64,000 nt of DNA from Candidatus Woesearchaeota archaeon (GCA_964343875.1 CAYFJW010000002.1:6797-70796), one strand, 5' to 3'; positions 28,776 to 33,134 are shown, numbered from the stretch's first letter. Notes: generated by a model from the letters alone, not told the origin. Made by a program: numbers and translations.

Positions 28776-30164
28776 TTAAGCTATGTCAAAGCCCCGGTAT
28801 GCAGAATTTTCAGCAGTAGCAGTAACTTCTTGTAAATTCCCCCATGTAGAAGAATCAAATACTTGGACATTAATATCATTCCCCTTATCATACGTACCCA
28901 ATATGATCTCATTCCTCTCATGATTACCCTTAACAACGGCCCAAGTTATATCGTTAACAGTATCCGTTCCCACTGATTGAGCACTTGATTCAGCTTCAAA
29001 ATCATTTGTGTCATTCCATTTCCTATACCTCGGCGTAGCAACATTGGCCTCCCCATAACTAATAATCCCGTCCGCATGTGTAGAATTAATTACATCATCA
29101 TGTATGAAGTCAAACTCTAAGAAAGCAGTTCTGTTGTGATGATATATCGGAGAGTCACAACTTTCTTCAACCCAACCATAACAACCCTCATAAGGATCCT
29201 CATCACATGATAAATAACCTTCATCCAAACATTGTGTGTACTCCTCTAAAGGAGAATTAACCCTCAATACCTTGAAATCAAACACATCTGTTGGCCCAGT
29301 TAATCCTGTAACAGGTATAAATTGCACCTCGGGATAATCTATTACCCCCGACTTTCCAACTAAATGCGTTGTTCCTTCTTCATAAATCTCAAAATAAGTT
29401 AAAGTACCATTACTTCTTGCAAGAATGTCAATCATCCTTCCATCAGTTAGATTTTCTACAAATGTAACACGGACATATTCATCAGTATAAATTGCTTCAG
29501 ACCAATTAGCATCAACAGCCTTGATTTCATCAAAAATATTATTAATAAATCCATAGGTCTCATTCAAATGAACAGCATCACTTACATTAATTTCTCCAAA
29601 TCCAGGATCGTGAGGAGTTAACTCAAATGAATACTCTTCTCCAGGAATAATATCCTGTAAGAACTTCCATTCCCCATAACAAGCTTGCTCCTCAAAATTC
29701 CAATCCTTACATTTGTATAGCGCAGTACCCTTCGCCGTGGCAGTTACAGTTGCATTAGTGAACGGAACTTCTTCGGGATCAATAGCATAAACTTCAACGA
29801 ATTCAACTTCTTCAATCTTCTCTTCAGGTACATCATCCACACCCAAAACAACAGTTTTTTCACTAACATTTAAATCTTCAAATATAATTGTCTCAACAGG
29901 ACCATCATCCATTTCAACAACTACCTTGTGTTCTCCTTCTTCAACAATTTCAATCGTAGGCAAATCAGAGTCTATAACAGCAATCACATCCTCTGTTTCA
30001 CCCTCTAAAATTTCTGCGACGAATTCCACATCTTCCCCATTACTGTCATTAATTTCAATATCAACAATAACTTCATCCGATATAGGAACTTCACCTTCAG
30101 CAAGAACAAAAATAGCTAGCAAAGAGATTACAATTGTCACAAGAAGCAATAATCTCTTATTCAT
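28776..30164 (-). CDS. surface protein segment 1 (signal peptide and N-terminal domain)
   Basis: Signal peptide MNKRLLLLVTIVISLLAIFVLAEG; ends at TAA but the frame continues coherently into segment 2. Confidence 0.6.
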   Translation of the reverse strand: MNKRLLLLVTIVISLLAIFVLAEGEVPISDEVIVDIEINDSNGEDVEFVAEILEGETEDVIAVIDSDLPTIEIVEEGEHKVVVEMDDGPVETIIFEDLNVSEKTVVLGVDDVPEEKIEEVEFVEVYAIDPEEVPFTNATVTATAKGTALYKCKDWNFEEQACYGEWKFLQDIIPGEEYSFELTPHDPGFGEINVSDAVHLNETYGFINNIFDEIKAVDANWSEAIYTDEYVRVTFVENLTDGRMIDILARSNGTLTYFEIYEEGTTHLVGKSGVIDYPEVQFIPVTGLTGPTDVFDFKVLRVNSPLEEYTQCLDEGYLSCDEDPYEGCYGWVEESCDSPIYHHNRTAFLEFDFIHDDVINSTHADGIISYGEANVATPRYRKWNDTNDFEAESSAQSVGTDTVNDITWAVVKGNHERNEIILGTYDKGNDINVQVFDSSTWGNLQEVTATAENSAYRGFDIA

Positions 30165-30304
30165 TTTTTCCCTTCCCCCACAATAAATTTGTCAATAGCA
30201 GTCTCAACAGCATGAGAGACATTCCTATATTTCTTAGAACTAAGGAGTTTTTTCAGATTCCTTACAGTAGACTCATCTAATGTAACAGAAATCCTCTCTT
30301 TCAT
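30161..30304 (-). CDS. ribbon-helix-helix (CopG/Arc-like) DNA-binding protein
   Basis: 47-aa ORF MKERISVTLDESTVRNLKKLLSSKKYRNVSHAVETAIDKFIVGEGKK (too short for the ORF track); its TGA overlaps the ATG of the surface protein gene. Confidence 0.45.
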   Translation of the reverse strand: MKERISVTLDESTVRNLKKLLSSKKYRNVSHAVETAIDKFIVGEGKK

Positions 30305-30406
30305 TAAAGAATACAACATAAATAATACTTTATAAGACTTTCTATTATTAAAGAATATTAAATAAAATCAAATCATATAAAGTATTACGTTAAAAACAAC
30401 AAAAAA

Positions 30407-30949
30407 TCACTCTGTTAGATCAATTACACTATCGCACAAAGGAGCCAGTTCCCCAATTAATCCCTTATCAGTTTTATCATCCAATAAAACAATAACACCC
30501 ACTAAATCATGCTCCCTCATTTTTTCTATAAGGAACCTAGCAAACCTAATTACGGTCTTCTCACTATGGTAAACCGACAATGCATTCAATGAGTCCAATA
30601 ACACAAATTCATGCTGCTTAATTTTATAAATTGGTTCTAAACAAATGCCTATGTGTGTTAAACTTTCTAAACTCCTTAAGAACACACAGTTGTCCGCTTT
30701 CTGTTCTTTCGCAGTAACACAATCAACGAATAATAGATTATCAGGATTTACTCCCTTTGTCTTCATTAATTTACTAACAACCTTATATGGGCTGTTCATA
30801 GAAAGATATGCCCCATCCATTTTATTTTTTTTGACAAGGATTTTAATTATATCCATCATTATTTCTTTATATCCCCTACTAGGAAGGATAACCAGAGAAA
30901 CATAATCCTCATCTACCCCTTCCAACGCATCCTTAAGCTCTTTTTTCAT
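30407..30949 (-). CDS. degenerate RecA/KaiC-fold protein (no Walker A), partner of the KaiC-like ATPase
   Basis: RecA-like beta-strand pattern (FVLLDSLNAL, GVIVLLDD) but no P-loop; start overlaps the stop of the upstream ATPase gene. Confidence 0.4.
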   Translation of the reverse strand: MKKELKDALEGVDEDYVSLVILPSRGYKEIMMDIIKILVKKNKMDGAYLSMNSPYKVVSKLMKTKGVNPDNLLFVDCVTAKEQKADNCVFLRSLESLTHIGICLEPIYKIKQHEFVLLDSLNALSVYHSEKTVIRFARFLIEKMREHDLVGVIVLLDDKTDKGLIGELAPLCDSVIDLTE

Positions 30950-32121
30950 TAGTCGATTCCTCCAAAGACTTCTTGATCGGGGTAAACTGTGATCCCGTCA
31001 TCTGTAATCTGCATAGCAACAATTTTCTTATCGTGTTTAGCACCTCTCAGCTTTAAAACTTCTATGGCGTTCTCTCTTATATTTCCGCGTTTAATATTAT
31101 ATAAAACAATAACACCATCTGCAAGAAACTCTTCAACACCACTAGTACTAAAAATCTTAGGTATTTGCTCAGTTTCAGTAATCATAAAGGCTGTAGTAGA
31201 TATCTTTTCAAAGAATCTAAAAAGTTGCTCAATATAAATTCTATAACTATCTTCCTTTCCAGTAAAAGCAGAAGCAATTGCAGTTAATGAATCAACAATT
31301 ACAATATCTGGCTGAAAGTCAGAAGGGAATATAATTGGTTCAATATCAATCAAAAGCTCACCCTTAGACTTCATCAATAAAGCATCAACGCTCCTAGTAA
31401 TGTCAAAGGGATTAAATCTTTTAATTGCTAAGTTATTTTTTTTAATCAACTCATGCGGATTCCATCCAAAATCCTCCATATGTTGAATTAATCTTTCTTC
31501 AGACTCCTCAAAACTCATATACAAGCATTTCTTGCCTTTTTTTGCATGATGATTCAACATTTGCAAGCTTAGAATTGTTTTACCACTTCCCGCACCGCCT
31601 GCAAGAAGTATTGTAGATCCCTTTGGAACACCATCAAAGAATAAAGCATCAAAACCAGGAACACCGGTCTCAATAAAACCCTCCTTTGTTTTTTTACCAC
31701 TAATCTCTCCGACAGTTCTAGAGATTTCTTTACTCTCTGTAATCACCTTCGCTTCATGTTTTTTGATATTACCTGCTTTGATATGGCTTTCAATATCTTT
31801 TTTTATTTTAGAAAGATCAATTTTCTTTAAGTCAGAAATTTTACCTTCGCCTTTCTTTATATCTTCCTTTTCAATTTTCCTAACTTCTACATGGGGTCTG
31901 GATTTTTCCTTTCTATCTTTCGTCCAGTAATGAACCTTTGCCATATTGATCTTCCTAACATTAACATCACCCTTTCCAACCAATGCATGCAGCCTCGCAA
32001 GAACAGTGTGCCTAGCAAGCTTAGTACGCTTCATAACCTCTGCTATGGTCAAACCTTCAGAATGACTTTTTAGGAGATTCTCAATTTTATACCGGTGTTT
32101 GTCCTTTTCTCGCTTTGTCAT
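30949..32121 (-). CDS. wHTH-KaiC-like (RecA superfamily) ATPase
   Basis: N-terminal winged-helix (LTIAEVMKRTKLARHTVLARLHALVGKGDV), K/E-rich linker, KaiC/RadA-like domain with Walker A GGAGSGKT and Walker B VIVDSL. Confidence 0.7.
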   Translation of the reverse strand: MTKREKDKHRYKIENLLKSHSEGLTIAEVMKRTKLARHTVLARLHALVGKGDVNVRKINMAKVHYWTKDRKEKSRPHVEVRKIEKEDIKKGEGKISDLKKIDLSKIKKDIESHIKAGNIKKHEAKVITESKEISRTVGEISGKKTKEGFIETGVPGFDALFFDGVPKGSTILLAGGAGSGKTILSLQMLNHHAKKGKKCLYMSFEESEERLIQHMEDFGWNPHELIKKNNLAIKRFNPFDITRSVDALLMKSKGELLIDIEPIIFPSDFQPDIVIVDSLTAIASAFTGKEDSYRIYIEQLFRFFEKISTTAFMITETEQIPKIFSTSGVEEFLADGVIVLYNIKRGNIRENAIEVLKLRGAKHDKKIVAMQITDDGITVYPDQEVFGGID

Positions 32122-32191
32122 AAATATCTAGCATAAACAATTATAACAGTTATTTATAAACATTGTGTTACCCCAACATATAGTATATATA

Positions 32192-32254
32192 ACTATCACA
32201 TTAAACTATCACATTAAACTATCACATTAAACTATCACATTAAACTATCACATA
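32192..32254. repeat. 13-bp tandem repeat (ACTATCACATTAA) x4.8
   Basis: Read directly: four perfect copies and a partial fifth, 70-130 bp upstream of the wHTH-KaiC gene start. Confidence 0.9.
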
Positions 32255-32574
32255 CATATATCACCACTATTAAAATAGAAATACAAGCCCCAAAAACTAA
32301 AAATTCAGATTTCTGGGATTTAAGCAAAGGTTTATAATGCCCCATGATAATCCAATAAAATGGCCGAATATAAAACAAACAAGCAAGAGAATTACGCCGA
32401 AACTTCTAATAGCTCGAGCCTCTACATCCTACAAGGACAAATTAAGAGGAAAGGGATTTGCACTTGTGAGAAAAAAGTACCATGTCGCGGAACCTGTATC
32501 CCTCGCTAAAAATCCGAAATTCTTCTGAGAGTTTATAAGAAAGTTTAATAAATAAGTAATCTCTAGGGATTACC

Positions 32575-32802
32575 ATGAAAACAATCACAATTAAGCTACC
32601 CAAGGAAGAAGCAAAAAAGCTAGATCTATTCATCAAGGAACAGTACTACCCCTCTAAATCAGAATTCATAAGAAATCTAATCAGGAATAAACTTGAACAA
32701 GCCACAAAAGAGAAACAGGGTTGGTTGGCTCTAGCAGAATTATCATTAAAGAAGGTCTGGGATAATAAAAAAGATGATGAAACGTGGAGCCAATATCTAT
32801 GA
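32575..32802 (+). CDS. ribbon-helix-helix antitoxin (CopG-like)
   Basis: MKTITIKLPKEEAKKLDLFIKEQYYPSKSEFIRNLI RHH signature; 3' end overlaps downstream toxin. Confidence 0.6.
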   Translation: MKTITIKLPKEEAKKLDLFIKEQYYPSKSEFIRNLIRNKLEQATKEKQGWLALAELSLKKVWDNKKDDETWSQYL

Positions 32803-33134
32803 TTTCTCAAAGGGACTTATTGCTAGTTCCATTTCCCTTTTCAGATCAACAAGGAACAAAAGTAAGACCTGTAATCGCACTAAGTAACAATAAGTTTAAT
32901 TGTAATTCTGAAGATGTCATCGTAACAGCCGTAACATCCAATTTAACAAAAGAGAAATACTCCATAGACTTGTCTTCTTGTGACATGGAAGAAGGAATTC
33001 TCAATCAAGACTGTTGCATAAAAGCAGAAAATATTCTCAAGCTAGATAAAAACCTTATATTAAAAAAAATAGGAAAAATAAAACAAGAAAAACACAACCA
33101 AGTAATTAAACTAATAGAAGGGATAATTAATTAA
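32784..33134 (+). CDS. MazF/PemK-family endoribonuclease toxin
   Basis: RDLLLVPFPFSDQQGTKVRPVIAL motif typical of PemK/MazF. Confidence 0.7.
   Translation: MEPISMISQRDLLLVPFPFSDQQGTKVRPVIALSNNKFNCNSEDVIVTAVTSNLTKEKYSIDLSSCDMEEGILNQDCCIKAENILKLDKNLILKKIGKIKQEKHNQVIKLIEGIIN

Follow-up and report, generated by a model that had tools for sequence, protein, structure and literature searches.

A 13-bp-phased candidate operator upstream of a DNA-binding KaiC-like ATPase gene in a Woesearchaeota genome

Archaeal KaiC-like ATPases are reportedly hubs of signal transduction that occur together with inactivated homologues, a proposal said to originate with the 2017 mBio paper of Makarova, Galperin and Koonin. 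Here, we analyse a locus of this type in a 64,000-nucleotide stretch, hereafter the window, from a Candidatus Woesearchaeota archaeon, a tiny DPANN-type archaeon (GCA_964343875.1, CAYFJW010000002.1:6797-70796; positions are counted from its first nucleotide). In it, a gene for a KaiC-like ATPase with an N-terminal winged helix-turn-helix (wHTH) domain is preceded by a perfect tandem array of 13-bp units and followed by an overlapping gene for a P-loop-less partner protein (Table 1). With a probability that we put at roughly 0.6, the locus is an autoregulated transcription unit of a DNA-binding KaiC-like ATPase and the array is its own operator; the array of the window is most likely the sharpest example, recently homogenised, of a putative operator whose 13-bp phasing is conserved. 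As far as the hubs can be characterised from second-hand accounts of the 2017 paper, the locus shares with them a single-domain KaiC ATPase, a variable N-terminal domain (here a wHTH as output) and an adjacent KaiC fold without a P-loop, but the subfamily described here is DPANN-specific, unusually conserved and linked to giant surface-protein genes. DUF835 and MEDS are tabulated as inactivated KaiC (iKaiC) by Galperin et al. 2018 (PMC5847659), with credit to Makarova et al. 2017 mBio. Active KaiC-like proteins paired with inactivated ones are thus an already described archaeal theme, and the proteins themselves are new members of known families, KaiC-like ATPase and iKaiC; this part of the architecture, which an earlier annotation of the window (the sequence-only reading) did not recognise as described, is therefore not new. 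The other part of that claim stands for now: the accessible literature on hubs and iKaiC, in which the 2017 paper is represented at second hand, mentions no cis element, phased operator or autoregulation, and our provisional conclusion is that it describes neither a wHTH-KaiC gene whose operator is conserved and strictly phased at 13 bp, nor a polymorphism of its unit number, nor a link of this subfamily to giant surface-protein genes.

Cyanobacterial KaiC has the same fold, Walker A and B motifs and Glu-Glu pair, and the ATPase finds its best PDB fold matches among KaiC structures; the present protein differs in having one domain instead of the CI-CII tandem, in carrying a DNA-binding domain and in scoring below the equivalog cut-offs. 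Neither KaiA nor KaiB is encoded near the locus. In haloarchaea, CirA lowers the expression of arl genes (PMC10983859), and the KaiC-like regulators GvpD and CirA are thought to work through other regulators, such as CsmR (PMC13286277). These are likewise KaiC-family P-loop proteins that alter the transcription of target genes, but they are without a DNA-binding domain, whereas the ATPase described here bears a wHTH and has a recognisable putative operator. The closest solved folds to the partner are ArlH/FlaH (4yds) and Pyrococcus PH0284/PH0186 (2dr3), single-domain archaeal KaiC-like proteins that retain the P-loop and bind ATP, whereas the partner has neither the P-loop nor the catalytic glutamates; no archaellum genes lie nearby. 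EarA, an archaeal wHTH regulator, has repeated sites upstream of the B recognition element (BRE) in the archaellum promoter (PMC13286277). The combination of a winged helix with several short repeated sites just upstream of BRE/TATA is common to both cases, but EarA lacks an ATPase domain, and its sites are not described as strictly phased at 13 bp over 60-150 bp. Oligomeric ATPases fused to an HTH or winged-helix domain, with multiple phased sites upstream of a promoter or beside their own gene, are found among the NtrC-type enhancer-binding proteins and in Orc1/Cdc6 with its origin recognition boxes (ORB/mini-ORB). They offer an analogy of working only, in which nucleotide-controlled assembly would be expected to govern binding; they are AAA+ and not RecA/KaiC proteins, act in sigma-54-dependent transcription or in replication, and have unrelated spacing and sequences.

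Read in the orientation of the gene, the array of the window consists of four copies of ATGTGATAGTTTA followed by ATGTGATAGTT and contains five TGTGATAG cores between -132 and -70 from the ATPase ATG. Tandem Repeats Finder (TRF) recovers it at 32191-32253 with period 13, 4.8 copies, 100% matches and a score of 126, which bears out the array of the sequence-only reading and makes it by far the strongest in the 64 kb. By chance, 64 kb would contain such a run with a probability of about 1e-22. No other copy of the 13-mer is present in the window, and the array is its only 13-bp-periodic region, where all 12 top-scoring intervals of the scan are found, about 10 standard deviations over the mean. 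It ends 28 bp before a TATA-like box, TTTATAAATA, whose distance from the start codon would imply a very short leader. Orthologues have AACATTTATAAA where the window has TTTATAAATA, and ACATTTA/TAAATGT k-mers are conserved upstream. The repeats therefore stand beside the core promoter in the window, and in orthologues their units reach BRE/TATA or the gap between TATA and ATG.

Core and spacing are both kept upstream of orthologues and not of paralogues. We compared k-mers of the window unit in the 250 bp upstream of 20 HTH-bearing orthologues with those upstream of 80 KaiC paralogues without the HTH. TGATAG was present in 12/20 orthologues and 8/80 controls (p = 7e-6) and TGTGATA in 7/20 and 3/80 (p = 4e-4); the TTTA spacer part of the unit was not enriched in this comparison. 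Sites of the type (A/G)TGTGATAG(A)CGT, often palindromic (TGATAGACGTCTATCA), recur upstream, beside the conserved AACATTTATAAA promoter, and de novo expectation maximisation from random seeds, with the window and locus L003 left out, converged on ATGTGTGATAGACGT. In L003 itself, whose protein is 65% identical, TGATAGACGTATA is repeated in tandem at least 6-7 times with a 13-bp period, and a 14-bp position weight matrix trained without the window and L003 ranks this array top, at 18.9 bits.

The period can be followed further than the unit sequence. By TRF, arrays of period 13 are present in 8/21 regions upstream of orthologues (window included) and in 1/80 controls (p = 8e-6); besides the window, the carriers are L066 (9.7 copies), L003 (5.9), L004 (5.2), L006 (4.6), L064, L126 and L069. 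When the upstream regions of L064, L004 and L066 are written out in rows of 13, 8-12 units in phase can be followed as far as the TATA box, and phased rows are also seen in L003. Autocorrelation over 17 orthologue upstream regions, excluding the window and L003, gave an excess at lags 13, 26 and 39 (+0.064, +0.058 and +0.049; Mann-Whitney against controls 1e-8, 2e-9 and 7e-4), with troughs at 12, 14, 25 and 27. One of these three lags was among the top three in all 18 of the 18 non-window HTH-bearing orthologues, compared with 18/80 controls, where 23% is expected by chance. When whole loci of 4-7 kb were scanned, the strongest 13-bp periodicity lay 0-330 bp upstream of the wHTH-KaiC ATG in 15/17 of them. 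One of the exceptions, a 13-bp-periodic peak downstream of the L065 gene, was rejected as a CT-rich simple repeat with no relation to the array. The upstream neighbours vary by genome (hemerythrin/coiled-coil proteins, aRF1, HAMP sensors, PIN, Lrp, REC), and it follows that the array travels with, and belongs to, the wHTH-KaiC gene. Divergence of the unit sequences at a constant period speaks for selection acting on the spacing, and the perfect copies in the window then point to the recent homogenisation of an old array. The idea of an iterated operator, put forward from the window alone, gains support from these arrays. The same reading had named an array missing from orthologous loci and a partner of unrelated fold as grounds for giving it up; phased arrays are present in orthologues, and the partner has a RecA/KaiC fold.

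The 390-aa protein has the predicted order of winged helix, Lys/Glu-rich linker and KaiC-type ATPase. Pfam KaiC (PF06745) matches residues 150-383 over positions 1-230 of the 231 of the model, with an E-value of 6.5e-52 and 176.6 bits for a cut-off of 26.6. Across an alignment of 35 orthologues, GGAGSGKT, IVIVDS, the catalytic FEE at 204-206 (pair E205/E206) and the R-G sensor motif are invariant, and by these motifs the domain is catalytically complete. The top 50 PDB matches of the ATPase model in Foldseek are all KaiC (E ~2e-10), the confidence of the domain model being moderate. NCBIfam KaiC equivalogs score 137 bits for a cut-off of 408 and 107 for a cut-off of 546, so that the protein is to be regarded as a single-domain KaiC-like ATPase and not as a clock KaiC; the ArlH and RadA models are also far under their cut-offs, and there is a weak GvpD_P-loop Pfam match. 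In the AlphaFold2 (AF2) model, residues 10-68 (predicted local distance difference test, pLDDT, 80-91) form helices 13-19, 26-33 and 37-50 and strands 53-58 and 61-66, which makes this region, by modelled fold (H-H-H-beta-beta), a winged helix in no named family: HTH_IclR, HTH_24, HTH_20, MarR_2 and TrmB are all under the gathering cut-off. Matches below the cut-off recur among orthologues (HTH_IclR in 14/15, HTH_24 in 13/15, HTH_20 in 10/15), and PDB profile matches are weak. The N-terminal block GLTIxDIMKKTxLARHTVLARLH, with the recognition-helix region LARHTVLARLH, is near-invariant in the 35 orthologues. The charged linker of about 80 residues is poorly ordered and modelled at low confidence, with two predicted helices (103-115 and 121-136). 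About 2,000 database proteins match the ATPase; identity among the top 120 is 53-100%, and their sources are Woesearchaeota, Pacearchaeota and 'Nanoarchaeia'. The subfamily is DPANN-specific and its ATPase domain unusually well kept, at 60-75% identity, and the metagenome scan found no relative above 65% identity.

The stop codon of the ATPase gene and the start codon of the partner gene have one base in common (TAATG), as had been noted before, and the partner gene is predicted from this overlap to be translationally coupled. By profile, motif and modelled fold, the partner is an inactivated KaiC-like protein of the iKaiC class (DUF7504/DUF835 type), which agrees with the active/inactive RecA-fold pair proposed earlier. 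DUF7504 matches its C-terminal third only (residues 116-178; 36 bits, cut-off 27), DUF835 stays below the cut-off (19 for 33), and so do DUF7090 and the KaiC Pfam models. A HMMER search with the partner retrieved 1,576 cluster representatives (E <= 1e-3), mostly stand-alone proteins of about 180 aa and some C-terminal domains of larger proteins. In a 47-member partner family, 46 members match PF06745 and all 47 match DUF7504, and the family profile hits KaiC in the PDB at 3.5e-5, as well as FlaH. The AF2 model (pLDDT 84.8; predicted template modelling score, pTM, 0.85) resembles FlaH/ArlH (4yds, E 6.5e-8) and PH0284 (2dr3, template modelling (TM) score 0.77), with TM scores of 0.64-0.77 over FlaH/ArlH, PH0284, KaiC domains and RAD51 paralogues, those for FlaH, PH0284 and KaiC being 0.69-0.77. 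The strongly conserved positions of the 47 members are hhhhDS with the invariant D119, F74-x-D76, Y48/N52, L97-T98 and D173, and their alignment contains no P-loop; in the profile alignment, PSRGYKE takes the position of Walker A and N52-S53 that of Glu-Glu, while a Walker-B-like FVLLDS is retained.

The partner adjoins the wHTH-KaiC gene in the clade of the window, in L141 (71%) and in L060 (64%), with overlaps of 1-4 bases, the Joint Genome Institute (JGI) relatives included (4 bases in L141 and L060). In the metagenome and GTDB scans, it lies within 400 bp in just 2 of the 21 HTH-bearing orthologues. Of the 93 HTH-less paralogues that belong to the same ATPase subfamily in related genomes, 29 have a partner this close, with order and orientation changing from case to case. 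In L146 (66%), the wHTH-KaiC gene is followed by a ribbon-helix-helix (RHH) gene and then by a gene for a 2,614-aa protein, with no partner between. The proposal that pair and array form a fixed system does not survive these counts. As judged from gene order, the KaiC/iKaiC association is general and loose, with no fixed two-gene system peculiar to this locus, and a partner next to the wHTH-KaiC gene is confined to a subclade. In L004 (3538-4722) and L069 (4339-5796), the gene directly after wHTH-KaiC is a second, HTH-less KaiC paralogue and not iKaiC.

The array is most likely bound by the winged helix encoded in the same gene. Self-binding is the most economical proposal, since the element tracks the HTH-bearing form, the recognition helix is near-invariant, in keeping with the conserved core site, and no other regulator is constantly adjacent. 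The wHTH-KaiC protein would be expected to oligomerise through its ATPase domain, as a six-membered ring if it follows its family, with one winged helix per 13-bp unit and cooperative binding. A fixed correspondence of one hexamer to six sites was dropped, the arrays running from 1 to about 12 units. The nucleotide-dependent oligomeric state would set the occupancy of the array, and occupancy beside the promoter would in turn determine how strongly the wHTH-KaiC/iKaiC bicistron is transcribed. Of the two directions, negative feedback through spreading to BRE, TATA and the transcription start site seems somewhat likelier than activation, given that sites overlap the start-site region in several orthologues. 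The iKaiC partner would probably modulate the ATPase by co-assembly or capping, as proposed for other KaiC/iKaiC pairs, and variation of unit number in the population would tune operator strength. One can also imagine, though we consider it doubtful, a nucleoprotein switch in which a KaiC-type ring or filament forms on the 13-bp track under the control of ATP and phosphorylation, with one winged helix per unit and about 78 bp per hexamer, perhaps wrapping. A slow nucleotide cycle would then be converted into promoter occupancy as a timer or bistable device, iKaiC would set its state, unit number would act as a population rheostat, and the RHH and giant surface genes, candidate host-contact proteins of episymbionts, would be its output.

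Several observations weigh against the array being the operator of this ATPase. The window units score only about 10 bits with the matrix mentioned above, level with random matches in the window, because the ACGT half of the consensus is missing; a full site shared by the window and the orthologues is therefore not proposed, and what they have in common is the TGTGATAG core and the period. L066 has the period without the core, the array of L126 is seemingly inverted, and no array but only a single palindromic site is present in L141 (71%), the closest of the orthologues with available DNA. The position of the site relative to TATA also varies: several loci have it upstream of BRE, whereas in L145, L146 and L061 it falls between TATA and ATG. 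The geometry in the window would suit an activator as well. A spacing of 13 bp differs from the helical repeat, so that simple cooperative binding on the same face fails to explain it. Owing to their kinship, the orthologues are less independent than the p-values imply, even if units have diverged while the period was kept. On the protein side, the partner is rarely adjacent in HTH-bearing orthologues, and direct hhalign of the partner family with the ATPase family is weak (E 0.036), leaving a correspondence of motifs only. Finally, binding by the wHTH is predicted from sequence, and the array may be readable by another factor. If the phased array were a cis element of the wHTH-KaiC gene read by a different protein, such as a global regulator or a chromatin protein, and wHTH-KaiC had its targets elsewhere, the poor match of the window units and the coreless array of L066 would be accounted for, and these genomes encode many small RHH and wHTH proteins, some of them next door. 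We think this unlikely: array and core follow the HTH-bearing orthologues despite changing neighbours and are not a feature upstream of the 80 HTH-less paralogues from like genomes, the 64-kb window holds no second array cluster, and the neighbouring RHH has a different conserved inverted repeat of its own. Chance duplication in an AT-rich spacer, giving a functionless minisatellite, agrees with the perfect identity of the copies and with the missing array of L141, but it is hardly credible in view of a period and core that recur upstream of orthologues with diverged units and not in controls, and of a degenerate sixth unit that keeps the register.

A role in DNA organisation, segregation or replication, with the array as a centromere-, origin- or iteron-like element, has precedents in Orc1/Cdc6 encoded beside ORB/mini-ORB repeats and in the ParR/parC repeats upstream of their own operon. 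A winged-helix ATPase encoded beside an array of its presumed own sites, arrays of up to 10-12 phased units, a non-helical spacing that suggests a wrapped or helical nucleoprotein assembly and very strong protein conservation across DPANN are all in line with it. Cumulative GC skew, however, falls almost monotonically through the window, interrupted by short rises at 12-16 kb and 40-42 kb, and does not inflect at about 32 kb, and no mobile-element relative was found: plasmids contain only ATPase-domain matches of about 30%, phages none, and the array sequence was not found in viral contigs. These two results disfavour such a function; in addition, no partition-type or initiator gene is adjacent and the arrays abut or overlap the gene's own BRE/TATA as operators do, and we hold it to be very improbable. 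The array could also be a slippage-prone copy-number switch that creates population heterogeneity, its unit number acting on the KaiC pair and indirectly on the RHH and giant genes, which is compatible with an operator. Identical units imply recent expansion or homogenisation, contigs break at array edges or within an array (detailed below), and the same population is polymorphic for a stop or a sense codon in the downstream surface-protein gene. Against this, every complete assembly has 5 copies, most orthologue arrays are degenerate and unable to slip, and the surface-protein gene is preceded by a conserved promoter of its own, which leaves such a switch a rather improbable account. We retain the autoregulated operator as the preferred reading.

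The evidence on copy number comes from contig ends. The ATPase protein was found on 13 contigs of one project, and the MEGAHIT (k127) assemblies of two samples cross the array, each with 5 copies. In ERZ930066, contigs L050 and L143 each hold the whole 63-bp array and end exactly at its far edge, the gene-side contig (L050) starting at the distal edge and L143, coming from the other side, stopping at the proximal one; in ERZ930065, the gene-side contig L049 begins at the same distal edge. Contigs that overlap by exactly the array fit a k=127 graph in which a 5-copy and a longer allele coexist, and coverage gaps are disfavoured as a cause since they would not end at both array boundaries. These data suggest that the unit number is polymorphic in the natural population, and they lend indirect support to the copy-number variation envisaged in the sequence-only reading; breaks inside the array in k=31 Logan contigs are uninformative. 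The contig of L003 (1-90) starts inside its own 13-bp array, so that the full array must exceed the visible part and here, too, the array interrupts the assembly. In L056 (1-340), a KaiC fragment of 98% identity that passes at the P-loop into unrelated sequence of high GC content was ignored as an assembly chimera and not taken for a natural truncation.

Table 1. Features of the wHTH-KaiC locus in the 64,000-nucleotide window
Feature	Position	Strand	Evidence or remark
Perfect tandem array, 13 bp x 4.8	32191..32253	-	TRF, sequence
Degenerate sixth, distal unit TGGTGATATATGT	32254..32266	-	In 13-bp register; GTGATA core retained, 7/13 identical
TATA-like box TTTATAAATA	32151..32160	-	Sequence; -39..-30 from ATG
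wHTH-linker-KaiC-like ATPase gene, 390 aa	30949..32121	-	Open reading frame (ORF) listing, Pfam, alignment, AF2, Foldseek
Winged-helix domain, residues 10-68	31918..32094	-	AF2, alignment, weak wHTH Pfam matches
Lys/Glu-rich linker, residues 69-149	31675..31917	-	Alignment, AF2
KaiC-like ATPase domain, residues 150-383	30973..31674	-	PF06745, invariant motifs, Foldseek
Walker A GGAGSGKT, residues 175-182	31576-31599	-	Alignment
Walker B IVIVDSLT, residues 273-280	31282-31305	-	Alignment
iKaiC, DUF7504-type partner gene, 180 aa	30407..30949	-	Pfam, HMMER family, AF2, profile alignment
Oligo-T run (TTTTTTGTTGTTTTT) right behind partner stop	30390..30406	-	Sequence
RHH gene, 52 aa, stop overlapping start of secreted-protein gene	30161..30319	-	Weak RHH_1/NikR matches; kept in relatives
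Secreted/giant surface-protein ORFs, 462 + 718 + 598 aa	24546..30164	-	ORF listing, relatives
RHH antitoxin + MazF/PemK toxin, overlapping genes	32575..33134	+	Pfam

The oligo-T run TTTTTTGTTGTTTTT after the partner stop looks like an archaeal terminator, by which wHTH-KaiC and iKaiC would form their own transcription unit. Beyond it, the promoter region of the small RHH gene (45-52 aa; window 30320-30406, minus strand) is strongly conserved in L138, L139, L001, L056 and L146. It carries an inverted repeat, GTAATACTTTAT...ATAAAGTATTAC, conserved among relatives, whose second arm lies over a TATA-like box. The TGATAG motif and 13-bp phasing were sought upstream of the RHH/giant-protein gene, and this different inverted repeat was found instead; it is probably the operator of the RHH itself and has no relation to the 13-bp array.

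Close relatives have a single gene of 2,100-2,600 aa where the window has three surface-protein ORFs. Among assemblies of the same population, an A/C single-nucleotide polymorphism falls on window position 28776, the third base of the stop codon of the ORF at 28776-30164 (minus strand): with A, the allele of the window, the ORF ends after 462 aa, and with C, found in L049, L052 and L053, it reads through to at least 1,221 aa (L049). This is a nonsense polymorphism in a surface-protein gene. Homologues of the secreted ORFs of the window occur near a KaiC-like gene in 33 related loci, nearly always downstream and on the same strand; 7 of these are HTH orthologues, and the gaps are 1-2,600 bp, the smallest 1-14 bp. 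Loci with a giant-protein neighbour include L015, L033, L034, L063, L065, L068, L073, L086, L104, L105, L108, L126 and L146. Overlaps of a small RHH or wHTH gene with the start of the giant one are frequent. Gene order thus defines a recurrent DPANN neighbourhood of KaiC-like ATPase (with or without iKaiC), small DNA-binding protein and giant surface protein, in which the small RHH and giant surface-protein genes are steadier downstream neighbours of the ATPase gene than the partner is. The giant surface-protein genes downstream of this KaiC subfamily are a plausible candidate output.

On the other side of the array, the MazF/RHH pair noted earlier is confirmed by PemK (9.5e-14, 52 bits, cut-off 23.1) and RHH_1 (3.6e-7, 30.4 bits, cut-off 20.5) in Pfam, the PemK/MazF gene following an overlapping RHH gene as in MazEF-like type II toxin-antitoxin systems. 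Close relatives, with partners 58-85% identical, have the order CBS, amino-acid permease, MazF/RHH (present or not), KaiC, partner, 45-52-aa RHH and giant protein; the closest of them, 80-85% identical, come from JGI sample 3300072015. The toxin-antitoxin pair is missing from the locus of an 85%-identical relative and present in one 83%-related contig, and this variable presence between close relatives marks it as an accessory insertion outside the module. Between it and the array lie two overlapping small ORFs without family matches (32337-32528, plus strand, 63 aa; 32360-32509, plus strand, 49 aa), where relatives have a 51-aa ORF called in either orientation. A TTTATAAT box about 28 bp before the ATG of the 49-aa ORF would suit a leaderless transcript diverging from the array, and Rfam and tRNA scans of the spacer at 32122-32575 found no RNA gene. 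Elsewhere in the subfamily, hemerythrin-like domains are fused to the N terminus of KaiC paralogues (proteins P0069, P0085 and P0116; second gene of L069, 4339-5796) and also head long coiled-coil proteins encoded directly upstream of wHTH-KaiC (L066, L069 and L070), an arrangement that suggests that, in some genomes, this ATPase subfamily receives an O2, iron or redox input.

Although a role as major hubs of signalling has been proposed for the KaiC-like ATPases of archaea, hardly any of them has a known output or target. An ATPase with its own DNA-binding domain and a conserved putative operator of unusually strict 13-bp phasing makes a defined protein-DNA pair that can be produced recombinantly, and with it the conversion of a KaiC-type nucleotide cycle, together with an inactive paralogue, into a regulatory decision can be studied. 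Unit-number polymorphism, if true, would be a rare case in which operator dosage varies within a population of uncultured archaea. Few regulators in DPANN genomes of the Woesearchaeota and Pacearchaeota type are as conserved as this protein, whose repeated siting upstream of giant surface-protein genes may bear on the control of the cell surface and of host contact in minimal symbionts.

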